Positions 4,842 through 54,281 of a stretch of DNA of 64,000 nt are shown one piece after another. The notes beneath the pieces are model-generated. The model made no database searches. It was not told the DNA's origin and saw only the letters and a list, made by a program, of their open reading frames with translations. The position numbers were made by a program, and so were the translations under genes. Within the stretch, counting starts at the first letter, position 1; the number at the start of each line of letters is the position of its first letter. The DNA comes from Patescibacteria group bacterium (GTDB lineage: Bacteria; Patescibacteriota; Patescibacteriia; UBA2591; JAQUPP01), in NCBI GenBank assembly GCA_041649955.1, contig JBAZMD010000001.1:68079-132078 (forward strand), in the 5' to 3' direction.

Positions 4842-5300
4842 TTATTTAATTTCAATAATTGTAAAAGTCGTAAGACCGGTTGGAACCTGAAATTCCACTT
4901 TTTCATTAAGTCTCTTATTTAAAAGGGCTTGCCCTAATGGAGACTCATAGGAAATTCTGCCTTGCGCCGGATCTGATTCTTCACTGTCCACGATCATGAA
5001 AGTCTTAAAATCATCTTTAATTTTAAGTTTGACCGTTGAACCTATTCTAACCACATCTTTATTTTTCTGATGGCTGTCAATAATTTCAACATTTCTCAAT
5101 AAATTTTCCAGTCTTATTATCTCATTTTCTACCCATCCCTGCTCTTCCTTAGCTGTCGTATATTCCGCATTTTCGCTTAAATCACCCAGTTCTTTGGCAG
5201 CACGAATCCGGTCCGCAACTTGCGGCCTTCTTACGCTTCTTAATTCTTCCAATTCTTGTTCAATTTTTTTTCGCCCTTCAGGCGTTAAGAAAAATGTCAT
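4842..5300 (-). CDS. greA: transcription elongation factor GreA
   Basis: 152 aa; N-terminal coiled coil + C-terminal FKBP-like domain pattern. Confidence 0.85.
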   Translation of the reverse strand: MTFFLTPEGRKKIEQELEELRSVRRPQVADRIRAAKELGDLSENAEYTTAKEEQGWVENEIIRLENLLRNVEIIDSHQKNKDVVRIGSTVKLKIKDDFKTFMIVDSEESDPAQGRISYESPLGQALLNKRLNEKVEFQVPTGLTTFTIIEIK

Positions 5301-5480
5301 ATAGATTCATTATTATTTATTGTTTGTTACTCCATTCATTCCCGCCGCTACACGGCGGTATTTCTGGAGACAAACAATAAAATTAAAAAAACACCGAGTT
5401 AATTGGTATTAGTTTATATTATTATAGCAGGTATCCTGCAAAAGTCAAATCCCCTTGTGGAAAACTTTTTACTCCAAATA

Positions 5481-7406
5481 TTATTTTTTCTTTTGTTCCG
5501 CCCACCAAGATAAAATTTCTTTGGCAGCCGGTGCGGCAAAAGACGAACCTTCACCCCCATTTTCCACTAAAATAGTCAAAGCTATTTCCGGATTTTCATA
5601 AGGCGCAAAGCAAGTAAACCAAGCGTGATTGCCCTTACCTTCTACCTGAGCCGTGCCGGTTTTACCGGCGACTTGAATCGGCAGAGTATTTAAACTGCGA
5701 GCGCTGCCCGTCGTGATAGTCTGGCGCATTCCTTCTCTGACTAATTCCAAATATTTTGCATCAATAAAATTTTCTCTGATAATTTGGGGATGAATAATTA
5801 TTTTTTGGCCGGTTTCCGGATTATCAATTTCTTTGACCAAGCGAGGTTGAAAAAGAGTTTTGCCATTGGCGATTGCCGCCGTATAATTCGCCACTTGAAT
5901 CGGCGTTACCAAAATATTGCTCTGACCAATAGACAAATGATAAGTGTCGCCGATGTACCACGGTTCTTTTATAACATTTTCTTTATAAGCGGGAGTCAAT
6001 AAAAAACCGGTTGCCTCGCCTTTTAAATCAATGCCTGTCTTGCTGTTTAAACCGAAAAGTTCGGCATATTGAATAATTTTTTCCGGCCCAAGGCCTTCAA
6101 AATTTCCAAATCCTCCGCCAATATAATAAAAGAAAGTATTTACCGATTCGGCTAAAGCTTTTCTAAAATCAGTCACACCGTGCCCGCCTGTTTTCCAATC
6201 ACCGAAAAACCACTGTCCGATTCTTACTCCTCCGGTAGAAAGGATTGTTGTTTTCTCGTTGATAATGCCTTCGGCAAAAGCAGCGGCTATTTCAATCGGC
6301 TTAAAAATTGAACCGGACGGATATTGGCCGCTGATCGCCCTGAAAAATAATGGTTTGGATGGATCTTCTATTAAGGTTTTGAAATCACTGGCGCTTGCTT
6401 GAATAAAAATATTATTATCAAAAGTCGGCCAGCTGACAATAGCTAAAATCTCGCCGTTTCGCGGATCTATTGCTACGGCTGATCCGGCACGAGCGCCGGC
6501 AGCTTTAATATAATGGCTTAAAACATCAGTAACTTTTTTTTGCAAACTCGCGTCAATGGTTAAAATCAAATCTTGCCCGGTTTGAGGCGTTTTTTGGCTG
6601 GCGATTCTTTTTTCTCTTCCAAGCGAATCAACTTCAATATTTTTTTCTCCATTCTCTCCTTTCAAAATATTTTCGTAATTTAATTCCAATCCTGTTTTGC
6701 CGAGAGAATCAGTCATTGAGTATTCTTTATTATCAGCCAATTCTTCCGGAGTAATTTTACCCATATAGCCGATAACATGCGAAAAATACGTGGGATCCGA
6801 ATATTGCCTTTTCGGTTCTATGTTTACGGAAACGCCGGGCAGTTCTTCCAATTTTAATTTTATCGCTTCTTCATAACTCAAATTATCTTTTAAAATAATA
6901 GGATATATTGATTGATTGGGCTGTTCAGCCGTAAGCTTGGATAATTCCTCTTTAGTTGAATTTTCCAATGATTCTCCCAAAAAAGATAAAATTTTGTTAA
7001 CAATTTCTATTCTCGTTTCTTTATTTTTAGGCAAATCCAAAGGCGTTATTATCAAAGAAAAATTCGGCATATTTTTAACCAAAGGCGTCTGATAACGGTC
7101 ATAAATAAGCCCTCTGTCCGCTTTAATTGTTTCAACGCGGATTCTGTTGCCCTCGGCCATATTTCTGAATTCATGTCCGGAAAAAACTTGAAGCCAAAAA
7201 ATCCTGCCGAATACTATGGTTAAAATCGCAATCATTAAAAAAATAAAAATATTGAGAGATTTTTTCTCCATAGGCAAAACTATCGGCCCGGCCCAATTTT
7301 CTTCCGGCGGCCAATAATTGCCCGCGTATCGGCGCTGATTAAACCCTTCTAATTTTCCATCTCTGATATTTTTGTCTTCTTGTTTAATTTTAAACGGATC
7401 ATCCAT
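5481..7406 (-). CDS. mrdA: penicillin-binding protein 2 (peptidoglycan D,D-transpeptidase)
   Basis: 641 aa; N-terminal TM, SxxK (SIFK) and KTGT motifs; follows mreCD. Confidence 0.8.
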   Translation of the reverse strand: MDDPFKIKQEDKNIRDGKLEGFNQRRYAGNYWPPEENWAGPIVLPMEKKSLNIFIFLMIAILTIVFGRIFWLQVFSGHEFRNMAEGNRIRVETIKADRGLIYDRYQTPLVKNMPNFSLIITPLDLPKNKETRIEIVNKILSFLGESLENSTKEELSKLTAEQPNQSIYPIILKDNLSYEEAIKLKLEELPGVSVNIEPKRQYSDPTYFSHVIGYMGKITPEELADNKEYSMTDSLGKTGLELNYENILKGENGEKNIEVDSLGREKRIASQKTPQTGQDLILTIDASLQKKVTDVLSHYIKAAGARAGSAVAIDPRNGEILAIVSWPTFDNNIFIQASASDFKTLIEDPSKPLFFRAISGQYPSGSIFKPIEIAAAFAEGIINEKTTILSTGGVRIGQWFFGDWKTGGHGVTDFRKALAESVNTFFYYIGGGFGNFEGLGPEKIIQYAELFGLNSKTGIDLKGEATGFLLTPAYKENVIKEPWYIGDTYHLSIGQSNILVTPIQVANYTAAIANGKTLFQPRLVKEIDNPETGQKIIIHPQIIRENFIDAKYLELVREGMRQTITTGSARSLNTLPIQVAGKTGTAQVEGKGNHAWFTCFAPYENPEIALTILVENGGEGSSFAAPAAKEILSWWAEQKKK

Positions 7407-7429
7407 AAAAAATACTTTTTATTACTGTT

Positions 7430-7930
7430 TTATTTTTGACGCAAAGTTTTAATAATTGAATATCCAATGATTATCGCCAAGCTATTTGCCAAAACAGACC
7501 AACCAAAATTAAACCAATAAAATTTGTCCATCACCACCATAAAATCCTGAAAATTCAAAAAATAAGCCAGCCAAACAATAATTAAAATAATGGCTTGATA
7601 AGCAAGATTGCATAAAATCGCCACAATTAAAACGCTGTTTGTGGACATTTGGCTGAATTCCTTGATAATTTTATAAGAAATAACCAGAATCAATAGAAAA
7701 GTCAGAAAAAAAATGCCCGGCTTAAAAATGGAATATAAATCAAATAAAATGCCGCTTGCCAATGCGACCAAAAGGGCGAATTTAAATTTATTAAAAATAA
7801 GCAAAAGAATCATTAAAATCAAAGTCAGATTTAAATATTTTAAAACCGGAGATTTAAATAAAAAAGAAATCTGTAAAATATTTAAACAGATTATTAACAA
7901 AAACAGTAAAATAAGTTTCAGTTTAGCCAT
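7430..7930 (-). CDS. mreD: rod shape-determining protein MreD (polytopic membrane protein)
   Basis: 166 aa multi-TM protein between mreC and PBP2 in canonical order. Confidence 0.55.
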   Translation of the reverse strand: MAKLKLILLFLLIICLNILQISFLFKSPVLKYLNLTLILMILLLIFNKFKFALLVALASGILFDLYSIFKPGIFFLTFLLILVISYKIIKEFSQMSTNSVLIVAILCNLAYQAIILIIVWLAYFLNFQDFMVVMDKFYWFNFGWSVLANSLAIIIGYSIIKTLRQK

Positions 7931-7938
7931 AAATTACA

Positions 7939-8742
7939 TTATGGAAGATTTTTTAATATTATTGCCGCAACTCTCAGATCCGAAAGAGATTTGGGCGATT
8001 TGATAACCGCTTCTTGAAAAACAGCATTTGGTTTTTTGTTAATTTCGGCTATTTCGCCGATTATTAGTCCTCTCCTGATATTTTCTTCCAAACCCGAAGT
8101 GATAATAATATCCCCTGTTTTTATCGGTTTATCAAGTGGAATGTAATTCATTTTCATAGTTAAACCGTATTCTCCCTGCACTATTCCGGAAACTGAATTC
8201 GGACTCTCGCCTTTTATGATAATATCAGCGGTAATTTGCGAATGGCTGTCAAAAACCGGCTGTAAAAACGAGAGATAATCTTCAACTTTTATTATCGTAC
8301 CGACCAAGGTTCCATTTTCATCAACAACCGCCAAACCGACATTTACGCCGTCTTTTTCGCCTTTATCAAGTAGAAACCATGTATAACCGGTTTCTATTCT
8401 TTTGCCGACAATATTGGTCAAAATAAATGAATTCTTGGAATTATCCAAAAAATTCAAATGATTTTTCAGAACTTGATTTTCCGTTTGATATATTTGGAGC
8501 TTGGCATTTTCGGTTTTAAGATTATTTATTTCTTTTTCCAATACCGATTTATCATTCTGCCAATTTTGACATTCAATAAAATTTTTTGGATGGCCTGAAA
8601 TTTTATAAGACAATTTTTCAAATGGCGTTAATAAGAAAAAAAGAGCGCTTTTTCCTCCATTGGAAAAAGCGAAAAAAAGCAAAACTATTACTATAAAAAA
8701 AATAACCACTCTTTTTTTAATGATTAAATCATTTATGGACAT
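7939..8742 (-). CDS. mreC: rod shape-determining protein MreC
   Basis: 267 aa; N-terminal TM, coiled coil, C-terminal beta domains. Confidence 0.75.
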   Translation of the reverse strand: MSINDLIIKKRVVIFFIVIVLLFFAFSNGGKSALFFLLTPFEKLSYKISGHPKNFIECQNWQNDKSVLEKEINNLKTENAKLQIYQTENQVLKNHLNFLDNSKNSFILTNIVGKRIETGYTWFLLDKGEKDGVNVGLAVVDENGTLVGTIIKVEDYLSFLQPVFDSHSQITADIIIKGESPNSVSGIVQGEYGLTMKMNYIPLDKPIKTGDIIITSGLEENIRRGLIIGEIAEINKKPNAVFQEAVIKSPKSLSDLRVAAIILKNLP

Positions 8743-8759
8743 ATTGATTATTTAAAGAT

Positions 8760-10340
8760 TTATTCTGATTCATTTTCATCAATAATAGAACCATCCGGAA
8801 AAGTTTCGGTTGTTGGAATTTCTATCACATTTTCCCATTTATAACCCAATTTTTCAAAAATTTCTCCTGATTTAAAAACTCTTTTACTGCCATTTTCAAT
8901 CAAATAAACCATAGCACTATCCGGATATTTTATTAAAGTTCCATTTGGCCTTGACGAAACCGGAGCGATAAATTGAAAACTATTGATCAACATTTTGAAA
9001 GTAGTCTTAAAATTCGCTTCTTTTTCAGTGCCGACATTATATGAAATCACATAAACATTTTCGCCCTTGGAAATATAAATCGTCAAATGATCCGAACTCC
9101 AAAGAGCCGGCTGATTATTGACAATAACGGCAGTTAATGAACTTTTTTCAGTTGTCGGCGATTGTTTTGAATACCAATCAATCAAAGACAATTGATCGGG
9201 ATTCTTTTCTGCAGTCGCGCTGAAAAATTCTCCGGTATTAGTAATCACTAAAACCTCTTCATTATTGGTTTCCGGAATTGCTCTGGTTATCCATGAAGAC
9301 GGATAGAAAAAACTGTAAGAAAAAGTGGAATTAGTATAAATATTGATCAAACCGGCGGCTGAAAGCTTATTCTCGCCCGTTTGCAGCGGATCGGTTAAAT
9401 TGGCTATTTCTTGGCCGTCGCTAATGCCATCGCCGTCAGTATCAGGATTATTAACGCTGGTGCGATAGATAGTTTCTTCCGTGTCGGTCAAACTGTCTTG
9501 ATCCGAATCAACAGTGGAAGAAATTTGCGGCGCTATTTGAAATATTTCCGTTTGAGGAATTGCCTTGCTTTTTGAAACAATTAAAGCAAAAGTGTCGGAC
9601 GGCAAAAGATCCAATTGAGCAATAATTAAATTATTTTCCACGTCTTGCGTACTTGATAAAGGAGTCCAAATATTATCTTTCAAATAGCCCAAAACAATAT
9701 CATTTTCCCAATTGCTTTCAACAATTTTATTATGATAAAAAGCTCTTAAGGTTGCTGATTTTTGCAAAATAAGATTAGTGGATTGAATTTTATAAGTCCC
9801 TCCAATAACCTTGTAATCATTGAATGTATTTTCATTGGTTATCGGCTCCGAGATTAATTCAATTTTTAAATTCTGGTCAACGGCTCCGGCAGGCAGATAA
9901 AATTCCAGCCAAGAAACAGTTTCGCCCGTTTGATCTTTTATCTCGGCTTTCAAAGTTTGTTCAATTGAAACATTCGCAGCCGGAACAGAGGGAGAATTAT
10001 TTTCTTCGGGCTGAGTAATGGCAGGAATTTGAGTGACAACCGGAATATTAGGATGGTAATTGGTGATCCAAAAATAAAACGCAAAACCTCCGCCGACAAT
10101 AATAATTAGAAGGCATAAAATTAAAATAAGAGATTTATTTTTATCTTTTTTGGACAATTTACGCTGAGCTTTGCGAAATTTCTCCGGCATCACATAAATC
10201 ATTTCTCCAGTGGTTCCATATTGAGTCACTTCTTCAATAATTTCCTTTTTAGCCGCAGGAGGAGGATTAGCAAAAATATCCTGCACCGCAGAAGCGTCTG
10301 TTTTTTGAGATTCCGGTTGTATAGGTGTTTCTTCTGGCAT
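8760..10340 (-). CDS. membrane-anchored protein with thrombospondin type 3 Ca-binding repeats and a C-terminal ~50-aa module shared with the giant protein 30882-37808
   Basis: 526 aa; single TM after ~90-aa cytoplasmic N-terminus; DxDxDGxxDxxE repeats. Confidence 0.6.
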   Translation of the reverse strand: MPEETPIQPESQKTDASAVQDIFANPPPAAKKEIIEEVTQYGTTGEMIYVMPEKFRKAQRKLSKKDKNKSLILILCLLIIIVGGGFAFYFWITNYHPNIPVVTQIPAITQPEENNSPSVPAANVSIEQTLKAEIKDQTGETVSWLEFYLPAGAVDQNLKIELISEPITNENTFNDYKVIGGTYKIQSTNLILQKSATLRAFYHNKIVESNWENDIVLGYLKDNIWTPLSSTQDVENNLIIAQLDLLPSDTFALIVSKSKAIPQTEIFQIAPQISSTVDSDQDSLTDTEETIYRTSVNNPDTDGDGISDGQEIANLTDPLQTGENKLSAAGLINIYTNSTFSYSFFYPSSWITRAIPETNNEEVLVITNTGEFFSATAEKNPDQLSLIDWYSKQSPTTEKSSLTAVIVNNQPALWSSDHLTIYISKGENVYVISYNVGTEKEANFKTTFKMLINSFQFIAPVSSRPNGTLIKYPDSAMVYLIENGSKRVFKSGEIFEKLGYKWENVIEIPTTETFPDGSIIDENESE

Positions 10341-10351
10341 AGTAAAATTAT

Positions 10352-10951
10352 TTACTTTAATTTATCAATTTCTTTTTGTAAATTCAATAACTTAGCATTT
10401 GGATTGGAATTATTCGGATCGGTATTATTTTTAATTTCTTGTCCGTCACTGATGCCGTCACCGTCAGTATCAGGTTTTAAAGGATTTGTTAAATAAACCT
10501 TAACTTCTTCTCTATCAGAAAGACCATCGTTGTCAGTATCAGATTTATTTTTATCAGTGCCCAAGGTAGTTTCTTCTTCATCAGTTAAACCGTCTCCATC
10601 AGCGTCAGGAGCCATTTCAATCGGTTTGGTAATAATTATCGGTGATATCTTGTTATCTTCCGGATTTATTTGAGGCTGACCGGTTTGATTGAGTTTTTTT
10701 ATTTTCGCCTGTTCTGTTAAACTTTTGATTTTAGGCAAAGCGTAATAATAAACTCCCGCTCCGACAATCGCAATAATGATAATAATCAAAATAACGCGAA
10801 TAAAATTTTTATTGATTTTCTTGCGATTTGATGATGAATTGCCGGAATTTTTATTTTCATCAGAAATAAAATTTTTACGTTCAACGTCTTCAAAAATATC
10901 TTCCACTTGGTTAGCGGAGTTTGGATTTAAATTTTTTATTTCGTCTGGCAT
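10352..10951 (-). CDS. small membrane protein with thrombospondin type 3 repeats
   Basis: 199 aa; TM helix then [12 protein letters not shown] / [12 protein letters not shown] / [12 protein letters not shown] repeats. Confidence 0.6.
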
Positions 10952-10986
10952 AATAAATTATATTTTATAAATTTATAAAAATTCTA

Positions 10987-13900
10987 TTATTGCAAAACAC
11001 TGCCGCCTATTTCACTAGTCCATGGATCATTTTTTGTTTTCTCAATAATCGGACCATAAACAGAATTAAAACATTTAAAAGCATCTGAATTATAGCCGAA
11101 TAATTTTTGCTGGCATTTAGTCGTCCAGCCACATAAATAGTGAGTTTCACAAGTATTTCTATCCATACCACCGCAATTTGCCTGCCATTTTGAAGAATCT
11201 GTTTCAAAATTCAGATATAAACGATAATCGTCTTCACTTATGGACACATACTGATAGACAGATGAGCCAACCGGACATTCATATTTACTTGTACTTTGAT
11301 TATAACAGGTTCCGCCGCATTGGCTAGTATCGCTGCAACCGGCGCAATAACCGCTTGTCGGGTTTGAAAATTGATTAGTCGGATCATTCGGCATACTGGA
11401 AATAAATTGCCCTTGAGGATTTTTCCAAGAAGGCCATTTGGAAACGGTCATTCCTTTTATAAAACTGCCTGATTCAAGTTTCGGATAATAACCATTAGTT
11501 GATTTATAATCTGTCAGTTTTTGGTTTATTGTTTTTAAATCATAAAGACGGAATAAATCTCGCTGAATTTTTTGCTGTTCATCAGTAGTTTTATTTGTGT
11601 TAAATTGCCAATTATTAACCAATTGATTAAAAATATCAATTGTCTCAGATTTAGCGCTATCAGAATACGAGATAAGATAAATTAAACCCTCAATTTTTCC
11701 GTCATCTTTAACATTTGTTGCCCCCACATAAACCGTTCTCCCCTCTTTTACCGCTTGATAACCATTAACAATAAACGATGTCGGTGAACCGGGGTTTGGC
11801 ACATTTTTCTTATACCATTCAAAAGGAGTAAGATAATCTGGATTTTTCAAAACCTTAAGACCGATCACGTCATTGTTAGCATTATTGGTAAAAAGAAATT
11901 CTTTAACTACATTTGATTTCGTAGTATCGGTTGCAATAAGAGATGGTAAGGATGGAAAATTTTGATATTCAGTCGGTTGCGCTCCTTTTTCCAATTGAAT
12001 ATTAGTCATATGGATTACATCTTCTTTTGTGGAAGCAGTCCATAATATCCCAACCTTAATTGCGGTATCATCAGGTCCGGTGGTAAAAGTATTGGAAATT
12101 TTAGCCAAAGCGCCAGTAGAAATCGCGTTTCCGGGCCAAACTAAATTATAATATGAAGAAGCAATCTTACTTTGAACATAAATGTATGCCAAAGACGTCC
12201 CTGTTCTATTTACTAACATGGATAGAGTATACTGCGTATTTGGAGAAACCTTAATCCAATTTGTTGATATTACTCCGGGAGTGCTTTTGGATTGCTTATT
12301 CGTGACTTTTAAAACATTATAATTAGATTGTTTAACAGTTGAAATGTCTACGCTTTGATTTTTACTCCAACCATTTGTGCCATCAAACATAGCACCGTTA
12401 AAAACTAAATTTTTCTCTAAATTTCCACGGCAATATTGCAATCTAAAATGAGTTTCTGAATCTGTAAATCCCCCTTGTATCCACGGAAATTCACAAAGAA
12501 AAACTTTGGCTTGTGCCATGGCTGAAAAGCTTTTACCAATATCTGATTTGGAAGTATCGGCTGTAATCTTAGCTGTAACTTTAATCTGCGAATCACCGTT
12601 TTGATTTTGGGCCGTGGCCGTTTGCGATGAATTAGCGCTGATTGGAACTAAAACCACGTTGGGTTTTGAAGAATCCCAAGACCAAGTCCAATTATAATCA
12701 GAAACGCCGTGAATCTCGGCTCCTTTATTATCAAGAGCTTTTGTTGAAAATTTTATTGTTGAATCTTTCTTATAAAACTCCACTGATGCTGGAGAAATAA
12801 TTTTTGGTTTTCCCGGATCTGTATTTACAGGATTAACTTTTTCATCCACTTCTTCGGCGGTTATTTCCACTTTGCTTAATTTGCAAATATCCGCACCAGT
12901 GGTAAATGTCCAAGAATTATTTTCCGCCATCTCAATGCCATATTTGCTTTTTACGATATTTTCTTTACCGGCAATTTCTTCTTTACCGGAAATTTCTACT
13001 TGATAAGTGCAAGCGCCGCTGGCATCTAATAAGCCTAAACCGGAATTTAAATAAACAATGGTTTGTTTTGTGGTATTATTATCAACCGCGGAAATATCCG
13101 CTTTTAAATCATAAATAACTGTTTTTCCCGCTTCAGCTTTTTTCAGAAAAATATTTTTTAAACTATTAAAAAATCTGACAAAAATATTATTTTTCTCCAA
13201 ACTGGCTGTAGCAGGACAATATTTATACAATTTAATTGTATCTGAATTAAGCGTGGATTTGTCCATTAATTGGTCAAAAGTGGCGTAAATTACGGTATTG
13301 CGGCAAACATTACCATTAGGATAACTATTCACTACTGTCGGCTGAGTAGCGACGACTAGATGGGAACTGTCGGAAATCGGTTGTTCACCTTTTGAAGTGG
13401 TAATTGTCGTGCTCACTGTAATATCTGTTTCACCTAAATTTTTACCTTTAACAGTCGCACTCTCGTTTGGCGTACCGACAAATTCAGCGATGTTCGGCGG
13501 ATCAGCGTCACCGTCGTCCCATGACCAAGAATATTTGCTTGATTCCAAATAATTACAATTTGAAGTATAAATTTGAGGAGTGTAAACTTTGGTTTCATTT
13601 TGTAAAATTTGGTTTGTACCCGCGGAATCAAGACAAATTTTATTCAAAGGACAATCATCATTATTCGCGATAAACATCCAAGTATAATCATCTCCTTGAA
13701 CGCCATTTTTGTCTCCATCCAGTTCCAATCCGAATTTATCTTTTATGCCGTTTGATCCGCTTTTTAAAATTATGCGGTAAATTTTATTTTTTTCCAAAGA
13801 AGCAGCAGGTTTGAAATAAAAGCCATTTTTTTCAATCGTAAAAGTGCCGAGAGCTATATTACTTGTCTCATTGTCCGGACATCCAGAATTATTAAAATCA

Positions 13901-16900
13901 CTAGTGCCGCATTTTTGAATTATTATATTTTTATTGGCAGCAGTATCAGTATTATTGGTGGTATCAATCACTACTTCCCGATTAAATCGAGCCCTGATTT
14001 GCGCTTGAGTGCAAGCGTCAGTAGATTGACTGGATGGCGAAGGTGATTGATCTCCCAATTTGCATTCACTGCAACCAGATTCTTCAGATACTTGCGGCGG
14101 TCCGCCCGGAGAAACTGTCAATAAAGCGCAAGTGCGCGGCTCTGTATAAGTACATACATTATCGCCCGTCGAAGCCATAATTAAAGATTGACCAAAATCT
14201 TTGGGTTTAGCAATTGTAGATAAACCGCTTGATGGTGAAATTGTGGCAATATTTGTTTTTGCGGAAGTCCAATTAAAACTATCCACGCAAATCTGGCGGC
14301 CATTTGAATCTAAAGCTGAAGCACCAAATGTCGGTGTTTGATTTAATCCATTAACTGTTAAATCAGTCGGAATAACTTTTATTGTTGTGATACGACATGT
14401 TCCATCTCCGGTAGTAAAATCCCAAGCAGTATCGTTCATAGAAACTCCCATTTTACTTATAGCTCCGCTTCCATATATTCCTCCCTTGACCCATATTTTA
14501 TAAGTAGAATTTGGATTTAGTTGACAGCCGGAAGGATAAAAATCAGTAGTTGTTTCTTTCTTAATATTATCATCAACGCTGGTGATTCTGCCCTTAACTT
14601 GATGAGGAGCTAAAATATCTTCTTCGGTTAAAGCTTTATTATAAATACGAACTTCGTCAATAACGCCTCTAAAATTAGAGTAATAGCATGATCCAAATTT
14701 TGGATCTGGACAGAGAGAATCTGCGTAAGATTGCCGGCCGATTACCAAATTGCCGGCATTGACTAAAGATTTTTCTCCAAATGTTTTTAGTTGAATACCG
14801 TCTAATTTTCCATTAACATAAATTTTAAGATTTTCTCCGTCATAAGTTGCTGTAATGCGATAAAAAACATCTTCTGATAACCATGTTGAACCGCGTACAT
14901 TAGTAAGATCAGGATGTATTCCAGTTCCCACTACGAAACCCGGCTGCCATTGACCGGTGTTTGGGCCTTTTCTATATAAATCCAATACATAGTTATTTCT
15001 TGCCGTCATACCCTCATCCCCTTTGGCTAAAATAACCAGTCTGCCCTTGTCAGGATCAGTAGAAGTGTCTTTTTTAATTTTTATAAAAACATCTAATGTT
15101 AATTTTTGCAAATCTAAAGAAGAACTATCAGGAATAGTTATATAATCACCATCGTCGCCTAGAGCACCATCAAATTCTAAAGCTTTTCCAAATTTTCCAT
15201 TAACCCAAGCTGCTCCGGAAATTGTTCCGTCATTTAACCCTTTCGCATCTTCAACGATTAATCCTGCTCCTTTGTTAAAATGCCAAAGCGCTACCATTCC
15301 TTCTTCAAAATTAGTTTCATAACCCGGATCAACATCAGAAGACAATAATTTGATATTATCATTTAAAGAATTATGATCCATTAAATCATCGAAGGTCATT
15401 GAAACTGACGCATTTTTACAAACATTAATTTCTCCATCAGCGGGTGATTTGCTTGCATTTATTATAATTGGTTGAGGATAACAGCATTTATTCGGATCTA
15501 AGATACCGCAACCGGCGCCGGTACCGCATTGAGCATCATTTTTGCAACCGCAACAGAGACCGCGAGGATTATCCTCTGGACCCTTACAATTACCTTGATT
15601 GGCTAAACAAGTTAAACCGACAGCGCAAGAATTCTGTTGTTTAGGATTGCAGCAACAACGACAAGTGTCAGCACCGCTTAAACATTTATAAGGCGCTGAA
15701 CAACTGCCTGAATTATTCGGACAAGATACATCTTGGCATTTATCTCCGGGTTTTGGCGCTCTATGTAAAACTTCAAAAGGCAAACTATTGCTTGTCCCGC
15801 TGGAATTTTTTACCACCACATTACCCTTTTGAGCGTCAGCCGGCACAAAGACTTCTATAATTTGCGTATCAGACCAATTTGCATCTAAAAAATCAGCAAC
15901 TACTTGATTATAAAAAATTATTTTGCTGCCGTCATTTTTTGTACCGAATCTTAAACCATTAAAACTGACTTTTGTTTCGCTTGGATCGCCTTTTGGATAA
16001 CCGCTGGAAGGATTAATTGACAAAAGACACGGACCGGATGATTCACTATTATCATTAACCAAAAATTTATCCCAACTCACAGTTTCTGATTTGCTGGCAT
16101 CTCCATCATAAGTAATCCCCACTTTAACGCCCAATGAATCCGAAATATCAGTTGCCGGATCGCCAAAAACCGCAGGAATAACCGTGGTAATAAAATCCGG
16201 ACCGGATGATTCTACGATTGCATTTATTGGCCCATCTTCTCCATTTGGTCGGGACTCAGCAGGCGGAATAACCGGATATTTATCATCAAATTGAAATTTA
16301 GTTATAGTCGCCGGACGATTAGTGGTGCCAGTAAAACAGCGGCCAAAAACAGTTACGCAACTTTTTCGTGAACCGGAATCGGGCGTTACTTTATAAATTA
16401 CCGGCGAACAAGCGCATTTGGTCAAATCAGTGGTTGTAAAATCCCAATCTTTGCCGAGTTTATTTTGATCAACATCCATTATTAAATCAGTAGTTGCGCT
16501 GATATAATAAGAAGTGCCGACAGTCAAATTATTATTTAATTTAATTTCAAAAACCTTAAATTGAGTGGAAATATTTTCAATATCAGCGTCAATAACTTTA
16601 ATTTTTCCAATCGTATTTTTGCCATCTTCGGTCGTGACGGATGCTTCAATTTCTTTCGGTTTAATAGAGCCTTGGAAAACAATATTTTTTCCGATTTTAC
16701 CCTGAATCGTTACCGTATTATCGTACATACTGGTGGCGAAGCTGACGCCAATCGGTTCGTCCGGACAAACATTTTTATCCTTTGGCCAATAATCGCTGAT
16801 CCCCGGAACAATATCATTTGTTTCAAATTTCCAAGATTGCGGCGCAGCCATTGGATTACCGCATAAATCTTTAACATTGGCCACGGTGATTTTATACCAA

Positions 16901-18165
16901 GTAAACGGATCAAGTAAATTAGGATTGCTTAAAGAAACAAAAAATCCTTGATATTTATCTTTAACAATTAATATTCCATTAATTGCCGTGCCGGATTCAG
17001 CATCTCGAGAAGCTAATTTTTCTATTGTAAAACTTGTGGAAATTGGATGTCCGTCAGCATCAGCCACTGTATCAAAATCTATACTTTCGTTAAAATTCAA
17101 ATCAATAATCGGCGCTCGAGAAACCCATTGATTTGGCTTTGCCGAATCAATAGTCGGATAAGTTTTATTCAAATAAGGCGCTTCTGTGTCTACGATATTA
17201 TTAGTTTCAAAATCCCAAATAACAGTATCAGCGTTTTTTGAGCAATGATATTTTGGATTAAATCCGTTACTGCAGCCATATAAAGGAAGACTGGGAATAT
17301 AAGTATCTTTAATTGATTTTGGGACAATAACATTATATTTAGTATCCGAGTCCCATATAGTTTTAGGAGTAAATAAAACCGAACTGCCTGAAATTTTCCA
17401 AGTTCCTTCAATAGCTTTTTTATCCGCATCAGTGGCTTTAACAACTTTCAAAGTTTCGTCGGTTATTACCGCGTTTACCTCATTAGAATTTAAATTATGA
17501 TTAAAAACTGGTTTTATCTTGCTGCAGCGATAAACTTTCGCATTTGGATTTTCAACTATATTCTCTGTACTGAAAGCAGCTTCGCCGCTCTTTAAAAGTA
17601 AAGACATTGAATCGGAAGAAAAATAACAAGTATCTTCTGCTGGAATAGTACATTCGCAATTCTCATCAAATTTCATGCCTATACCATTGCCGCAGCAAGA
17701 ATCCGGCTTGCAGCACTTGCTTCCTACGCAATAAGTTGAAGGTTCGGTCACCTCCGAAAGTTTACTCATAATAAAGCTGGCAATGGCGTAAGCTAAAACA
17801 ATAATTAAAATGCCGATAATGCCGGCAATCATCAATTTTTTGGCTCCGGCAATTTTAGTTTCATCTCCACCCGAAGTCATCCATCTAAAACCGCCCATAA
17901 TTATAATAACCGCCGCCGCCAATCCGAGCACGCCTAAAACAATTCTCATTATATTACCCATGGCAGAAGGGAGGTCAGTGTTTCCATAAGTCGCATGAGT
18001 GCGAAAATTTTCCAAACCGTTATTCATTTCTTGCGCATTGGTTAAAGCCGGATTTAAAACAAAAAATAAAAATCCGGATGCCATCAATAAACATAAAAAA
18101 CCTAAAAATATATTTTTTTTAAATTGTTTTTTTTCCGCCATCCGGCGAATTATTTCAATTTTCAT
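10987..18165 (-). CDS. giant (2392 aa) cell-surface protein with N-terminal T4SS/VirB2-like pilin double-TM domain, LamG/ConA-like lectin domain, Ig-like and Cys-rich modules
   Basis: N-terminus has signal/TM + GNIMRIVLGVLGLAAAVIIIMGGFRWMTSGGDETKIAGAKKLMIAGIIGILIIVLAYAIASFI, resembling the CPR T4SS-pilin fold; uninterrupted 7.2-kb ORF. Confidence 0.7.
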   Translation of the reverse strand: MKIEIIRRMAEKKQFKKNIFLGFLCLLMASGFLFFVLNPALTNAQEMNNGLENFRTHATYGNTDLPSAMGNIMRIVLGVLGLAAAVIIIMGGFRWMTSGGDETKIAGAKKLMIAGIIGILIIVLAYAIASFIMSKLSEVTEPSTYCVGSKCCKPDSCCGNGIGMKFDENCECTIPAEDTCYFSSDSMSLLLKSGEAAFSTENIVENPNAKVYRCSKIKPVFNHNLNSNEVNAVITDETLKVVKATDADKKAIEGTWKISGSSVLFTPKTIWDSDTKYNVIVPKSIKDTYIPSLPLYGCSNGFNPKYHCSKNADTVIWDFETNNIVDTEAPYLNKTYPTIDSAKPNQWVSRAPIIDLNFNESIDFDTVADADGHPISTSFTIEKLASRDAESGTAINGILIVKDKYQGFFVSLSNPNLLDPFTWYKITVANVKDLCGNPMAAPQSWKFETNDIVPGISDYWPKDKNVCPDEPIGVSFATSMYDNTVTIQGKIGKNIVFQGSIKPKEIEASVTTEDGKNTIGKIKVIDADIENISTQFKVFEIKLNNNLTVGTSYYISATTDLIMDVDQNKLGKDWDFTTTDLTKCACSPVIYKVTPDSGSRKSCVTVFGRCFTGTTNRPATITKFQFDDKYPVIPPAESRPNGEDGPINAIVESSGPDFITTVIPAVFGDPATDISDSLGVKVGITYDGDASKSETVSWDKFLVNDNSESSGPCLLSINPSSGYPKGDPSETKVSFNGLRFGTKNDGSKIIFYNQVVADFLDANWSDTQIIEVFVPADAQKGNVVVKNSSGTSNSLPFEVLHRAPKPGDKCQDVSCPNNSGSCSAPYKCLSGADTCRCCCNPKQQNSCAVGLTCLANQGNCKGPEDNPRGLCCGCKNDAQCGTGAGCGILDPNKCCYPQPIIINASKSPADGEINVCKNASVSMTFDDLMDHNSLNDNIKLLSSDVDPGYETNFEEGMVALWHFNKGAGLIVEDAKGLNDGTISGAAWVNGKFGKALEFDGALGDDGDYITIPDSSSLDLQKLTLDVFIKIKKDTSTDPDKGRLVILAKGDEGMTARNNYVLDLYRKGPNTGQWQPGFVVGTGIHPDLTNVRGSTWLSEDVFYRITATYDGENLKIYVNGKLDGIQLKTFGEKSLVNAGNLVIGRQSYADSLCPDPKFGSCYYSNFRGVIDEVRIYNKALTEEDILAPHQVKGRITSVDDNIKKETTTDFYPSGCQLNPNSTYKIWVKGGIYGSGAISKMGVSMNDTAWDFTTGDGTCRITTIKVIPTDLTVNGLNQTPTFGASALDSNGRQICVDSFNWTSAKTNIATISPSSGLSTIAKPKDFGQSLIMASTGDNVCTYTEPRTCALLTVSPGGPPQVSEESGCSECKLGDQSPSPSSQSTDACTQAQIRARFNREVVIDTTNNTDTAANKNIIIQKCGTSDFNNSGCPDNETSNIALGTFTIEKNGFYFKPAASLEKNKIYRIILKSGSNGIKDKFGLELDGDKNGVQGDDYTWMFIANNDDCPLNKICLDSAGTNQILQNETKVYTPQIYTSNCNYLESSKYSWSWDDGDADPPNIAEFVGTPNESATVKGKNLGETDITVSTTITTSKGEQPISDSSHLVVATQPTVVNSYPNGNVCRNTVIYATFDQLMDKSTLNSDTIKLYKYCPATASLEKNNIFVRFFNSLKNIFLKKAEAGKTVIYDLKADISAVDNNTTKQTIVYLNSGLGLLDASGACTYQVEISGKEEIAGKENIVKSKYGIEMAENNSWTFTTGADICKLSKVEITAEEVDEKVNPVNTDPGKPKIISPASVEFYKKDSTIKFSTKALDNKGAEIHGVSDYNWTWSWDSSKPNVVLVPISANSSQTATAQNQNGDSQIKVTAKITADTSKSDIGKSFSAMAQAKVFLCEFPWIQGGFTDSETHFRLQYCRGNLEKNLVFNGAMFDGTNGWSKNQSVDISTVKQSNYNVLKVTNKQSKSTPGVISTNWIKVSPNTQYTLSMLVNRTGTSLAYIYVQSKIASSYYNLVWPGNAISTGALAKISNTFTTGPDDTAIKVGILWTASTKEDVIHMTNIQLEKGAQPTEYQNFPSLPSLIATDTTKSNVVKEFLFTNNANNDVIGLKVLKNPDYLTPFEWYKKNVPNPGSPTSFIVNGYQAVKEGRTVYVGATNVKDDGKIEGLIYLISYSDSAKSETIDIFNQLVNNWQFNTNKTTDEQQKIQRDLFRLYDLKTINQKLTDYKSTNGYYPKLESGSFIKGMTVSKWPSWKNPQGQFISSMPNDPTNQFSNPTSGYCAGCSDTSQCGGTCYNQSTSKYECPVGSSVYQYVSISEDDYRLYLNFETDSSKWQANCGGMDRNTCETHYLCGWTTKCQQKLFGYNSDAFKCFNSVYGPIIEKTKNDPWTSEIGGSVLQ

Positions 18166-18187
18166 AAAAAAATTTTAGGTTTAAATT

Positions 18188-18643
18188 TTAGATATTATTT
18201 AATTGTTCTTTGACTATTTGGCTGACTTGATTGCCGTCCGCTTTGCCCTTGGTTTGTTTCGCCACCAAGCCCATTACTTTGCCGAAATCCGAAGGACCGT
18301 TGGCATTGATTTCTTTAATAACATTTAAAACTATTTCTTTCACTTGATCGCCCGATAATTGTTCGGGCATATATTTAAAAAGTATTTCCAATTCTTTTTT
18401 TTCTTTGGCGGCTAATTCCGGCCGATTCCCCTTTTCATATAATTCTATCGCCTCTTTGCGTTTTTTTATTTCTCCGCCGACAATATCAACAGCCAGTTCA
18501 TCGGTTAATTCTTGTTTCTTGGGTCTTAATTCAATAGCTTTATACGCCAAGGCGGATTTTAACATACGCAAAACAGCCTTCGTGTCTTCCTCTCCTTCAC
18601 GCAAGGCTTGTTTAAAATCTTTTTCAATACGTTCGAGCAACAT
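18188..18643 (-). CDS. yqeY: GatB/YqeY domain protein
   Basis: 151 aa; typical YqeY sequence, downstream of rpsU as in Firmicutes. Confidence 0.8.
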   Translation of the reverse strand: MLLERIEKDFKQALREGEEDTKAVLRMLKSALAYKAIELRPKKQELTDELAVDIVGGEIKKRKEAIELYEKGNRPELAAKEKKELEILFKYMPEQLSGDQVKEIVLNVIKEINANGPSDFGKVMGLVAKQTKGKADGNQVSQIVKEQLNNI

Positions 18644-18649
18644 ATTTAC

Positions 18650-18812
18650 CTCATTGGGGCGAGGATTATGTCGCTAAGAAAAGTGTCTTCCGCCAAAGGG
18701 CGGATAAACTCCGGGCGAGTAGTTCGCCAGCTGGGGCGGAGAGCCCGAGAGCCAAGCGACAATTTTCCCGCTGGGAAAATTGATCGTGTCTTTTCGTGCG
18801 ACTAATCCGAAC
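18650..18812 (-). ncRNA. candidate structured RNA / GC-rich structured spacer between rpsU and yqeY
   Basis: ~160 nt of markedly higher GC than flanks, several perfect hairpins (ttttcccGCTgggaaaa, ccgccAAAGggcgg), no ORF. Confidence 0.3.
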
Positions 18813-18815
18813 CTT

Positions 18816-19034
18816 TTACTTAATTTTACCAAGTTTTCTTAAATATTCCATTTTCTCGCGAGACGATTTTCTGCACAAAGCGCTTGCTCTGCGAAGAAGC
18901 TTGCTTTGCGGTTTAACATAAAATTGGCCTTTTTTGGCAAGGTCAAGCACGCCGCTTCTTTTAATGCGTTCGCTGAATCTTCTTAAAAAAATATTTAAGG
19001 ATTCGTTTGGTTTTCTTTTAAGTTCAATACTCAT
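18816..19034 (-). CDS. rpsU: 30S ribosomal protein S21
   Basis: 72 aa, basic, canonical S21 sequence. Confidence 0.85.
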   Translation of the reverse strand: MSIELKRKPNESLNIFLRRFSERIKRSGVLDLAKKGQFYVKPQSKLLRRASALCRKSSREKMEYLRKLGKIK

Positions 19035-19256
19035 ACTTTATATTATAATATATAATAATTAAAAAGCAAGCCCCACCACATGGAAATTATTGTTTTTCTG
19101 TAAAATTACGATTTAATAAGTATAAATTAAAAAAAATATTTTAGTTAGATATTTGAAATTATTAAGCATATAAAAAAACAAGAGAACAGTAATTTTAATA
19201 ATTTCCTTGTGGTGGGGCAAGCCTATTCTAACACATATTTTTATAGACGGGAAGAA

Positions 19257-30881: not shown

Positions 30882-33800
30882 TTATTTCGCGGCTAAGAAT
30901 TTCGGCGTGACTAAATTCTCGGCAAAATCTGAAATTGTTCCGCCGTCAGAATAAGTTTCAGCCTTAGAAATAGTCATTACCGGCACTTTGCTGTAACCAT
31001 TGTTGGTTAAAGCTTTGGCGGATAATTTATATTTCTTGCCGTTCTGAATCAGATAAATCTGAGAAGTTCCCGTGTATTTAACCAATGTTCCATTAGGATG
31101 TTTAGTCGTGGAATCAATCGTATCGCCTAAAGGATAATTGAATTTGGATAATAAATCATCAGGCACCCAAGTCACCAATTTCCATTTCGGATCATTGAAA
31201 AGTTTCTGATAAATCGCTGAAGATTTAACCGGTCTCAATTTGCCGTCAGAAACCATGAATACTGCCGAAGCGCTTAAACCGTGAAGCGATGTAGTCTTGC
31301 CTCTGAATAATGAACCGTCGCGGAATGTCATTGCTACGCCTTCAGAATATTTCGCAAATTCTTCAGAAGTAACCTTCTTGACTGTTGAGAAATTGGATGG
31401 ATAACCCCAAGAGAGATAAACATTAAGATGCGGGAAAACGTGCGCCTTGCCGTCCAAAATCATATAAACCGCGCCTGGTTGAGCAGTACAAGTCGGACAA
31501 ATAACCAAATCTCTATTTTTGAGATTATAAGTTATAACTTCTGCTGTTTCTTCTGATTCAGAAATAATTATTGCTGAAATTATTGAAGAGAGATTAAAAG
31601 TCTTATCTCTGAAACGGATATAAACCACTTTTTCTCCCTTACCAACTGGTAGTAACCAAGAACGAGTAGCTTGATACGGTTCCCAATTAATACCGACAAA
31701 ATCAATCGTATTACTAATCATCATTTCCGCGGCATCAGTAGCAGTAATGTTTAAAGTAACATTTCTGGAAGTAGTTTTCGCGGCACCACTATTTATCTTT
31801 AAGGATAAATCTTTTGGACCAAGATTACCTGCATTGCCACCACCTCCTGAACTGCCACTCATTGGGGTCGAATCTCCGCCAGCAGTAACAAACTTTCCTC
31901 CGGTAATACCGCCAGGTGTAAAATGGTTTGTGGTAACAATTATAACATTATTAGTTGCATCGCGAACCACTGATTTATAATTTTCCCAAGTGTTTGTGGT
32001 GTCATCAAAATATTTTGGCGTAATATCAGCTTCAGTATATCCATAATCTGTAATTAAATCCGGATCATAAGGGAATGTAATCTTTACGTCATTATCAAAT
32101 TGAGTGATTTCTTGACCAGTAGAGTCCTTAGCCGTGAAATCATAGTTAACGCCAAGCGGTTTATCTTTAGCATCCGGTTTCACTGATACCGTAGTTTGAT
32201 TTTCATCACCAACAGTCGGCGTAATAGTTACGGTAACTGTGCCACTGCTGGCTAAAGCTCCGGCTGGAATTTCAAGCGTCAGACCATTTGTAAGTTCAAT
32301 AGTTTTACTGTCTGAAGCGTTGAAAGTCGTAGTTTTAGCTTCAGGAACGGCAAGACCTGTGGTAACAAGAGTTAAATTCTTAGTTTGAGCGCCTGCTACG
32401 GTTATAACTTCAGTCGCAGCGCTTTCATAAAGGACTCCATCAATTTTGGCCGTGGCCTTAACATACCATGTTTCACCGGACTTAACTTTTAAAGTATAAG
32501 TTCCGTCAGAAGCCATTGTACCGGTTCCCTTATCCTCAGACCAAGCTTGTATCATTGCTTGTTTTCTAACGCTGTCTAAAGTAACCTCACCGGTGATAGT
32601 GGCATCTGATAAACTGAATTGAAGATCCTTACCTGTTACATTGGAATCGCCAACCGTCACACTGAGTAATGGCGGGTTAATCAAATCTCTCGCATCCCAA
32701 GGAGGAATACCGGCACCAATTTTGAAAGTACCACTGGTAACATTTAAAGTATAAGTGCCGTCATTTCCGGTAAAAGTACCAACACCCAAACCGCCCGGAC
32801 CCTTAAAATCATTTTTGGTCGTTTCATCACCAAAGTCAGCATAGACCCAAACTCCACTCATACCAACATCATCCGGATCCGTGATTGTACCGCTGATTGT
32901 TTTATCAAGTTTTTTAAGTTGGAAATTACGAGTAGTTGTACTATCGGCAATAACGGTTGATTTTACGTCTTCGGCTACTATTTTGTATTTATCATTATCA
33001 TCTCCAAAATTCATCATCGGATCAATAAAAGCGTCAACGTACCAACTGCCTGCTGAAACTTTTAATGAATATTTATCATTAACACTGCTTGGAGCAAATT
33101 CTGTTTGCGACCAGCCGCCATTTTCTTTATCACCATTGATAAAAGCGCGAACTCCTGTCACAACCGTATCTGTTCCTGCAGTATAAGAACTATCGCTATT
33201 AGTATCAAGATAAAATTTACCTTCAATCGTAGCATTATTCGGTGCCACCACTAAATCAATTTCTTTACATCCGGTTGTTTCGTCAGTACAAGTATCGCTT
33301 TCACCAACAGTAACAGTTTTAGTTACGGTTAAAGTATATTTAGAACCCGGAGGCGTATTTAAACCTAATTCATAACTGCCGAGCGGAACTTTAATTTCAG
33401 TATAACCATTAGCTAATCCTCCGCCGGCAAAACCACCTTTATCCATACCTGCTCCCATTGCTCCGCCGCCACCGCTGCCGCCACCTACAGCTGTTCCACC
33501 ACTACCTGCATCGCCGCTTCCACCTGCCATCATTTTCGGATCACCGAAATCAATAAAATCATTTACTGTCGGATCCGTATCTTTAACCCAAACTCCACCC
33601 CAAATATCGGAAACACGATTACCGTCAGCATCCACTACATTTACTTTAAGCAGACCATCGGCTACCTTTAATAAAAAGTCATTATTATCAGAAGTTTGAT
33701 TGGCGGTTATTGTTACTTGTTGCGGACCACCTTGATAAATATATTGAGTTGACATTGGCATAATCATTACGCCCCAATTTCCTTCACTGACAGTTAAATC

Positions 33801-42962: not shown

Positions 42963-42980
42963 AATTTAATTTTAAATTAT

Positions 42981-43925: not shown

Positions 43926-43945
43926 ATATTTTTATTTTAATTTAT

Positions 43946-53733: not shown

Positions 53734-54135
53734 TTATTTAATTTTATCCACATTTCCATTGAGAATAATCGGTTTCATCGCTTCTATTTCATCCGTATAA
53801 TTCATTTTGGGAATCTGGTTTAATAAAAATATCTTTTTATTCAAGATATGCGCAAAAGCCATTTCTATCAAACTATTGCCGCCGATATAATTTTTAATAC
53901 CTTGCTTGTCTTTATTAATAACCAGTATCGCGTCGCACTTTTTTATTTCTTCAAAATATTCTTTAAAAACATCACCTTCAATTTTTGACCATTTATCTTC
54001 ATGATTAACTTCACCCTCGGCGTATTTTAAAATATCCTTTGGTGCAATCGCAATTAATCCTTTTGCTTCAAGGATTTTTTGAGTTTCCAATATTTCTTTT
54101 GAAAAGGCAATACTGCCGCAAATCGCAATTTTCAT
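53734..54135 (-). CDS. nucleoside 2-deoxyribosyltransferase-like (Rossmann-like) protein
   Basis: Start reassigned to MKIAICGSIAF (the ORF-track N-terminus translates a palindromic promoter region); ILVINKD...GGNSLIEMAFAH pattern. Confidence 0.45.
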   Translation of the reverse strand: MKIAICGSIAFSKEILETQKILEAKGLIAIAPKDILKYAEGEVNHEDKWSKIEGDVFKEYFEEIKKCDAILVINKDKQGIKNYIGGNSLIEMAFAHILNKKIFLLNQIPKMNYTDEIEAMKPIILNGNVDKIK

Positions 54136-54166
54136 ATTTTTAGTATAATATTTTTTAAAATTATGT

Positions 54167-54227
54167 CCACCCCACCACCAAGAAATTATACTTCGCGTTA
54201 AAAAAATATAATTTCTAGGTGGCGGGG
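54167..54227 (-). promoter_or_regulatory. palindromic operator-like site (ccaccccaccaccaagaaattata / tataatttctaggtggcgggg) overlapping promoter of 53734-54135
   Basis: ~21-bp inverted arms separated by 16 nt; -35 TTGACC and -10-like boxes within. Confidence 0.4.
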
Positions 54228-54281
54228 TCAATAAAAAAAATTGGGTGCAGACTAGTCAAACTAGTTCTGCACCCTGATATG

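Follow-up and report, generated by a model that had tools for sequence, protein, structure and literature searches.

A 64,000-nt stretch of genomic DNA from a Patescibacteria group bacterium (assembly GCA_041649955.1, contig JBAZMD010000001.1, positions 68,079 to 132,078; hereafter the window, whose own numbering is used throughout) carries at positions 7430-19034 a string of genes that leads from rpsU and yqeY, through a giant gene and two genes for thrombospondin type 3 (TSP3) repeat proteins, to mreC and an mreD-like gene. We consider it probable that this interval is composed of two units, namely a self-contained three-gene envelope or adhesion module (the giant gene and both TSP3 genes) and a separate mreC-mreD-mrdA block that is adjacent to it in this lineage. 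The earlier note on this DNA had described an adhesin system coupled to the elongasome genes. That coupling was not borne out by related genomes, where the usual 3′ neighbour of the module was (ybeY-dgkA)-ftsA-ftsZ (64 of 83 loci), while mreC-mreD-mrdA followed in the window's own clade only and two relatives had unrelated neighbours. In addition, the edge of a recombination tract separated the module from mreC-mreD-mrdA.

The string from rpsU to mrdA lies entirely on the minus strand, as do the promoter and protein features described below. At its head are rpsU (18816..19034; ribosomal protein S21, Pfam Ribosomal_S21) and yqeY (18188..18643; GatB/YqeY-domain protein, Pfam YqeY 151.9 bits), followed by the giant gene (10987..18165), whose open reading frame (ORF) and Pfam matches point to a membrane-anchored multidomain surface protein of 2392 aa. 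The genes for the small TSP3 protein (TSPs, 199 aa, 10352..10951) and the large one (TSPL, 526 aa, 8760..10340) come next; both pass the cut-off of 25 bits for TSP3_bac (PF18884), with 78.1 and 26.6 bits, respectively. They are followed by mreC (7939..8742; Pfam MreC 99.2 bits, TIGR00219 102.6 bits against a cut-off of 92.75), the mreD-like gene (7430..7930), and, just outside the interval, mrdA, which encodes the PBP2 transpeptidase and ends the tight string (5481..7406; TIGR03423 566.6 bits against a cut-off of 455, Pfam PBP_dimer and Transpeptidase). MreC and PBP2, which adjoin as a block, both exceed the NCBIfam equivalog cut-offs. The mreD-like protein, with five hydrophobic segments, aligned with TIGR03426 over its full length at 19.1 bits, below the cut-off of 34.85, and had no Pfam match; its gene sits between mreC and mrdA in 13 related loci too. 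The gaps measured 172 nt (rpsU to yqeY), 22 nt (yqeY to giant), 35 nt (giant to TSPs), 11 nt (TSPs to TSPL), 17 nt (TSPL to mreC), 8 nt (mreC to mreD), and 23 nt (mreD to mrdA), and the six spacers from yqeY to mrdA were pure A+T without a hairpin.

The descriptive part of the earlier note stood. Its gap values of 22, 35, 11, and 17 nt were recomputed and all were exact, and its gene identities were confirmed by Pfam and NCBIfam, with the mreD-like gene below the cut-off. The giant had been called a pilin fusion, and a pilin-type N-terminus was indeed present (T4SS_pilin, 28.5 bits); the TSP3 proteins had been called membrane proteins, and each has one transmembrane (TM) segment. The statement that mreB is not upstream of mreC was also correct: tblastn and Pfam searches found no MreB, FtsA, or FtsZ encoded within the window or 10 kb past its low end, and no MreB match in 16 same-clade loci with 10-kb flanks. 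Likewise, there was no RodA-sized match within the window or 10 kb past its low end, and the gene 3′ of mrdA was greA, not rodA. A misassembly, which the note had allowed for, or a chance adjacency was ruled out, since two independent assemblies and 16 related genomes at species level have the string as well. One of these, an ENA assembly, matched 13.8 kb of it at 100% identity, and a JGI assembly had the identical gene order with a diverged giant gene.

The wider comparison was based on 85 loci, comprising the 80 best tblastn matches of a longer pattern-scan list of species-representative genomes and five loci found via exact-protein look-up. The 80 were fetched with an alignment of the TSPL family, all 85 were mapped by tblastn and ORF calls, and 83 of them were usable for the 3′ neighbour. 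The stable unit was (S21-YqeY)-giant-TSPs-TSPL, with one to three copies of TSPs and gaps mostly below 30 nt, and S21-YqeY was directly 5′ of the giant in 18 of the 22 loci that extended that far. The 64 ftsA-ftsZ loci mostly reached these genes via ybeY-dgkA (YbeY was detected in 60 of them), with gaps that were usually tiny or gave way to overlaps. In 16 loci the module was followed by mreC-mreD-mrdA(-greA-lysS-serS), and all of these had a TSPL at least 45% identical to that of the window. One locus had ybeY alone on the 3′ side. The two loci with unrelated neighbours, at 39-43% identity, had glycosyltransferases (L005) or an rsmI-like methylase, metG, and the L3-L4-L23-L2-S19 ribosomal genes (L020) in this place. 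The named genomes with the module included Paceibacter, Falkow-, Uhr-, Magasanik-, Komeili-, and Kerfeldbacteria, as well as a Microgenomatus.

Synteny therefore upheld one part of the earlier picture, the string itself, which was found in the 16 related loci, and did not uphold the mre linkage beyond the window's clade. The mreC junction is inherited within one clade, but it is a derived rearrangement. On balance, we regard the mre coupling as incidental to the way genes are arranged in a compact genome rather than a conserved link between adhesion and elongation. The frame formed by rpsU-yqeY on one side and ybeY-dgkA on the other looks ancient.

The junction between the two units was also visible in the comparison with a related strain, L001. 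A tract of 3.8 kb (~5000..8803), spanning the 3′ end of TSPL, mreC, mreD, mrdA, and the 5′ part of greA, was 100% identical to strain L001 (compared with L001 8389-13953), while its flanks were ~10% diverged, with about 20 mismatches per 200 nt. Synonymous divergence (dS) between the two strains was 0 for mreC, mreD, and mrdA, and 0.30-0.68 for rpsU, yqeY, the giant, TSPs, and TSPL. The tract is the product of recent homologous recombination in an uncultured candidate phyla radiation (CPR) population. Its upstream edge falls 45 nt short of the 3′ end of TSPL, at the TSPL/mreC junction, which indicates that the module and the mre block recombine as separate units. The nonsynonymous to synonymous ratio (dN/dS) of the giant was 0.27-0.45 in three comparisons versus 0.01-0.22 for its neighbours; TSPs and TSPL, at 0.08-0.12, were constrained like housekeeping genes.

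Short spacing alone was weak evidence for a link between these genes, since gaps of at most 35 nt made up 40% of the same-strand gaps in this compact window (median gap 88 nt). Tight spacing within a compact genome is accordingly no evidence of a functional link. Even so, the six gaps from yqeY to mrdA formed the longest short-gap run of the window, and short gaps were found again in relatives, the gap from TSPL to mreC being mostly short in the 16 related loci. The shared order and short gaps in these loci indicate that the arrangement is real, inherited, and compatible with a single transcript. The best promoter-like site of the region was a sigma-70-like match, TTGACT-16-TGcTATAAT (5421..5448, 11/12 in the scan), in the 180-nt gap between mrdA and greA, which is probably the start of the next transcription unit, that of greA. 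No strong promoter-like site was found in a short gap, and the long gaps 3′ of mrdA and greA had such sites. A terminator scan returned 17 sites against 15 ± 4 expected in shuffles, with zero in the short spacers; since the count was close to the shuffle expectation, the scan was uninformative. Co-transcription of the module with mreC-mreD-mrdA is plausible, and read-through from yqeY to mrdA is predicted because the gaps measure 8-35 nt and contain no hairpins.

The giant protein had Pfam matches to T4SS_pilin, Big_5 (four copies), TIG, Laminin_G_3, and CBM_4_9. The T4SS_pilin match (PF18895; residues 67-132, 17770..17967; 28.5 bits against a cut-off of 26.6) spans profile positions 7-71 of 71 and describes a VirB2/TrbC-like two-helix hairpin; the match to the NCBIfam pilin-like conjugal transfer family was below the cut-off. 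Hydrophobic segments were present only at residues 19-37 (signal-peptide-like), 75-93, and 111-129, and the loop joining the two hairpin helices reads WMTSGGDETKIAGAKK. The hairpin was kept in distant orthologues of the giant, which range from 1600 to 3750 aa and all carry PF18895. From these features we infer that the VirB2-like hairpin serves as the membrane anchor. Motif and hydropathy scans of the protein found neither an LP.[TSA]G motif nor a hydrophobic segment at the C-terminus; lacking LPxTG, the anchor is not of the sortase type. In the databases, the orthologues are named only "Ig-like domain-containing" or, in the JGI case, "cysteine-rich repeat protein".

Conserved and clade-specific parts alternate along the giant. 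Residues 1-960 and ~1360-1920 were conserved across distant orthologues, and the former part includes a Cys-rich stretch with 23 Cys (residues 810-916, 15418..15738). The Laminin_G_3/concanavalin-A-like lectin domain (residues 1005-1184, 14614..15153; 66.3 bits) is a clade-specific insert, with residues ~960-1200 uncovered in 57 distant loci, and so is the carbohydrate-binding module CBM_4_9 (residues 1918-2037, 12055..12414; 39.1 bits), with near-zero coverage among distant loci. The most conserved block, residues ~2080-2320 (11206..11928), was covered in 47-55 of the 57 distant loci and comprises a PsbP/Mog1-like domain, a long helix, and a disulfide-rich hairpin. It has no Pfam family, yet an exhaustive search of cluster representatives recovered it in 1409, with E<1e-10 for 1308 of these. 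An AlphaFold2 (AF2) model of the block, computed with an alignment of full-length database proteins, reached a predicted local distance difference test (pLDDT) score of 74-95 over segment residues 25-170 and of 65 overall, its last 70 residues being unreliable. Assignment of the helix segment QRDLxRLxDL...NGxYP to a type IV pilin head or to T2SSG (PF08334) was tried and rejected, as neither a family match nor a pilin fold was supported. In two related loci (L004 231-9362, and L013), the giant orthologue (3043 aa, a relative at 51% identity) had PT-HINT and Intein_splicing matches, which indicate an intein-like insertion within the gene.

The two TSP3 proteins share a bitopic layout. TSPs has a predicted cytoplasmic N-terminus, one TM segment (residues 50-68), and three TSP3 repeats outside the membrane, with DxDxDGxxD motifs at residues 116, 138, and 161. 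TSPL consists of a disordered cytoplasmic N-terminus, a TM segment (70-88), a beta-sandwich, two TSP3 repeats (residues 278 and 300), a PsbP-like domain, and a small C-terminal beta domain. Its AF2 model (pLDDT 78.7) matched CyanoP (2xb3) in Foldseek at E 4.4e-5, the beta-sandwich gave ZU5-like matches, and the Pfam score for PsbP_2 was 21.1 bits, under the cut-off. The TSPL family has ~60 full-length homologues, the named ones all from Patescibacteria, and the family goes by the database name "thrombospondin type 3 repeat-containing". The PsbP/Mog1-like domain of TSPL (residues 330-457, 8970..9353), delimited by the AF2 model, Foldseek, and hhalign, is homologous to that of the giant (hhalign 97.6%, E 4.6e-12, 30% identity over 91 columns), and in the models both domains form an alpha-beta-alpha sandwich superimposable on CyanoP/Mog1. 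Besides adjacency, this shared domain is the strongest sign that the giant and TSPL may work together. Some loci (L022, L023, L037, L049, L059, L064, L066, L070, L083, L084, and L086) encode, 3′ of the giant and ahead of the EDIF-type TSP3 gene, one more small membrane protein of 120-330 aa, with a TM segment near its N-terminus and TSP3 similarity, and lacking the EDIF peptide described below. It constitutes a third member of the module that is specific to certain lineages.

Each of the TSP3 proteins has short, conserved peptides within its cytoplasmic N-terminus. That of TSPs, VEDIF (10892..10906; consensus [EP][ED]DIF), preceded the TM segment in 64 of 84 TSPs-like ORFs, those without EDIF being the extra small paralogue or mislabelled ORFs. 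That of TSPL, IYVMPEKF (10176..10199; consensus h-x-[VT]-[MI]-P-[ED]-K-[FY]), matched the strict pattern in 65 of 88 ORFs, the remainder being slight variants or mislabelled FtsA; in the TSPL alignment M51 was invariant and F55 nearly so. A motif scan found a second TSPL motif, VQDIF (10272-10286). Within the window the DIF form occurred in the two TSP3 genes only, and one further ORF (53734-54231) fitted a looser pattern (PKDIL). EDIF and YVMPEKF were conserved from the window's clade to the remotest loci, and the two peptides probably dock a cytoplasmic partner. As a separate observation, the C-terminal peptide of FtsZ was near-invariant in 58 related loci (for example L022 14724-15830), reading EEEELEIPAFIRKKMM, and its acidic-I-x-x-F core loosely resembles the EDIF of TSPs.

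Topology, complex formation, adhesion, and co-transcription are read here from sequence, fold, and synteny, and on that basis the following mechanism is proposed. After cleavage of the signal peptide, the giant would be held in the cytoplasmic membrane by its VirB2-like hairpin and would project ~2250 residues outward, comprising the Ig-like, TIG, Cys-rich, LamG lectin, and carbohydrate-binding domains. TSPs and TSPL would act as single-pass, Ca2+-stiffened, membrane-anchored partners or scaffolds of the giant, and the three proteins may form one surface complex via the shared PsbP-like domain. The fast-evolving outer domains of the giant may recognise glycans carried by host or partner cells; rapid diversification of such modules would be expected of a surface that binds ligands or hosts. 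The module is probably expressed from the rpsU-yqeY housekeeping promoter, because it is kept directly behind these genes. In the window's clade, mreC-mreD-mrdA would have replaced the usual 3′ (ybeY-dgkA)-ftsA-ftsZ, and any read-through into the block would be incidental.

Several points weigh against this reading. The module stands directly 5′ of division or shape genes in 80 of the 83 loci, which could stem from function and not from inheritance, and the 80 loci taken from the pattern scan, being its best matches, do not sample the phylum without bias. Weak promoter-like matches (9-10/12) within the 3′ end of the giant and in the spacer between the giant and TSPs make internal promoters possible. 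The T4SS_pilin match exceeds its cut-off narrowly, and the label "adhesin" for the giant is derived from domain types only.

The first of these points is the core of the best-surviving alternative, a functional coupling in which an envelope-spanning module is coordinated with the divisome or elongasome and FtsA, FtsZ, or an MreB-type filament would be the target of EDIF and YVMPEKF. The position immediately 5′ of ftsA-ftsZ or mreC-mreD-mrdA, with short gaps or overlaps, would be expected under such a coupling, and all proteins encoded from the giant to mrdA belong, by hydropathy, to the envelope. Bitopic proteins with short conserved cytoplasmic motifs are typical of divisome and elongasome adaptors, and TSPs and TSPL, with their short, strongly conserved N-terminal motifs, have this form. 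EDIF, moreover, bears some likeness to the acidic I/F core of ELEIPAFI, the peptide at the C-terminus of FtsZ in these genomes, but the likeness is loose, since the Pro-Ala is absent from EDIF. The gene order itself also tells against a specific pairing. The functionally unrelated ybeY and dgkA intervene before ftsA in 60 loci, unrelated genes follow the module in the relatives at 39-43% identity, and the recombination tract has its edge at the TSPL/mreC junction. Finally, the 5′ link to rpsU-yqeY is kept in 18 of the 22 loci that extend that far, compared with 80 of 83 for a division or shape gene on the 3′ side, so that the pattern is that of a long block of conserved gene order. We therefore consider functional coupling unlikely, and the two-unit reading is retained.

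A more far-reaching form of this idea is that the module is a Patescibacteria-specific, envelope-spanning attachment organelle, wired to the division or elongation cytoskeleton via EDIF and YVMPEKF. In it, the VirB2-anchored giant would be a fibre that the two Ca2+-binding bitopic proteins hold by means of the shared PsbP-like domain. If this were true, ultra-small epibionts would time the building or positioning of their host-contact structure to cell division, and the adjacency of the module to ftsA-ftsZ or mreC-mreD-mrdA in nearly all loci would be accounted for. We regard it as a speculative proposal with a small chance of being correct.

A further alternative concerns the pilin-type N-terminus. 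Modular pilins with large C-terminal modules exist among type IV pili, and the VirB2-like domain could analogously be polymerised by a Patescibacteria type IV secretion system (T4SS), with the giant extension serving as a tip or side adhesin. The PF18895 match above the cut-off and the VirB2 layout of a signal peptide plus two helices are in its favour, and VirB2-like pilins and T4SS are widespread in Patescibacteria and important for the epibiotic lifestyle (PMC12102498). However, the pilins described in that study are small and often arrayed near virB4, with no giant fusions reported. No large ATPase-sized ORF with a T4SS family match was present among the scanned ORFs of the window, and the conserved string of the 85 loci contains only S21, YqeY, the giant, TSP3 proteins, YbeY, DgkA, and FtsA/Z or MreC/D plus PBP2, leaving no room for virB4 or virB6. 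An extension of 2250 residues per subunit would also be hard to fit into a tightly packed VirB2 filament. Polymerisation into a T4SS pilus is thus quite improbable, and a hairpin that anchors the giant in the membrane is preferred. Least likely of all is that the giant is a constitutive wall or surface-layer (S-layer) component, and not a host adhesin, anchored by the Ca2+-binding TSP3 proteins: S-layers commonly show Ca2+ dependence and hypervariable exposed regions, and conservation in many lineages, a single copy in a constant housekeeping place next to a ribosomal protein gene, conserved N- and C-terminal parts around a variable middle, and rapid divergence between strains would all fit, but Pfam and NCBIfam gave no S-layer family match (SLH or similar), and the lectin and CBM inserts suggest ligand binding.

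Other features of the window were recorded alongside the module. The rpsU-yqeY spacer (18644-18815, minus strand) is ~172 nt long, G+C-rich in a genome of 34% G+C, single-copy in the window, and predicted to form a multi-stem fold of -68.5 kcal/mol. The same spacer is only ~55 nt long in strains L001 and L007, so that ~120 nt represent a strain-specific insertion in the window; a small mobile element, a structured RNA, and an attenuator are candidates for its nature. A further insertion, of ~165 nt (19070-19233), lies upstream of rpsU and is likewise missing in L001 and L007; a 22-nt inverted repeat (19070-19091 / 19197-19218) with the core CCCCACCACAAGGAAATTATT bounds it, and its layout resembles that of a miniature inverted-repeat transposable element, with no second copy in the window. 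Neither the spacer nor the region upstream of rpsU had a match in Rfam. A second giant gene (30882-37808, minus strand, 2308 aa) encodes CarboxypepD_reg, SpaA, and SdrD-like beta-sandwich repeats and no T4SS_pilin domain, and is thus a different kind of large surface protein. At 41514-46868 (minus strand), three paralogous genes of ~480-490 aa ending in a PEP-utilizers mobile domain are interleaved with a 314-aa PPDK_N (ATP-grasp) gene, an unusual set of split or duplicated pyruvate-phosphate-dikinase-like genes that adjoins three methyltransferase genes. Across the window (1-64000), essentially all substantial ORFs are on the minus strand (53 ORFs, 88% of the sequence), and GC skew is negative in all 2-kb bins but one; together, the co-orientation and the negative skew place the window inside one replichore.

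A full-text literature search, which covered the CPR T4SS survey, the Pam pilus preprint, the CPR protein-family study, and the giant-gene preprint, found no published description of the module, the shared domain, the motifs, or the fixed position. The three-gene module thus appears to be previously undescribed; giant surface adhesins are a known type, and the anchor and the partners are unusual. The supplement of PMC10936435 contains several PF18895 proteins with gene lengths of 1.2-1.5 kb, none of which could be linked to the giant family. Patescibacteria are estimated to make up 15-50% of bacterial species (bioRxiv 10.64898/2026.03.03.709456). Most of them appear to be cell-attached, and host contact has so far been tied only to type IV pili, T4SS, and the newly described Pam pili. 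The module is a testable candidate for a core surface structure, found from Paceibacteria to ABY1 lineages and in one Microgenomatus genome, and it offers a fixed three-gene unit, a fast-evolving giant, an unannotated shared domain family, and two candidate cytoplasmic docking peptides.

Compared with known VirB2/TrbC-like T4SS_pilin proteins (PMC12102498), residues 67-132 of the giant belong to the same Pfam family and have the same layout of a signal peptide and two helices with a short charged loop. The known proteins, however, are small and stand-alone (about 100-130 aa), often in tandem near virB4, whereas here the domain makes up the first 6% of 2392 aa and lies in a housekeeping string with no T4SS genes nearby. 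The membrane-anchored "Dockerin-type" giant proteins of Omnitrophota, which carry TSP3 repeats (bioRxiv 10.1101/2023.11.21.568195), are similar in being very large extracellular proteins with Ig-like, lectin, and carbohydrate-binding modules, TSP3 repeats in the system, and an inferred role in attachment. They differ from the system described here, in which the TSP3 repeats are on two separate small partners and not on the giant, the putative anchor is a VirB2-like hairpin without LPxTG, the chromosomal position is fixed, and no type II/IV-like secretion locus adjoins. PsbP/Mog1-like envelope proteins are known from CyanoP, LpqN and Apa of M. tuberculosis, DcrB, and Tsi3; the CPR domains form their own family (the 1409 cluster representatives) and are found inside much larger proteins.

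In gene order, the mreC, mreD-like, and mrdA genes of the window are contiguous and ordered as in the canonical mreB-mreC-mreD-mrdA-rodA operon. They differ from it in that no mreB precedes mreC and no rodA follows mrdA; instead, the surface module comes before the block and greA after it. In Bacillus subtilis, rpsU-yqeY is upstream of the phoH-ybeY-dgkA group, and the genes between rpsU-yqeY and ybeY-dgkA in Bacillus are yqfA-D, phoH, and pgpH. The ybeY-dgkA pair is part of the old Terrabacterial syntenic group phoH-ybeY-dgkA-(cdd)-era (Front Mol Biosci 2023, PMC10582724). Most Patescibacteria loci similarly hold the module between rpsU-yqeY and ybeY-dgkA, the ends of this old string, but have giant-TSP3-TSP3 in between and ftsA-ftsZ after dgkA. 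The string rpsU-yqeY-module-(ybeY-dgkA)-ftsA-ftsZ also offers a clean synteny marker with which the evolution of gene order in the phylum can be traced.

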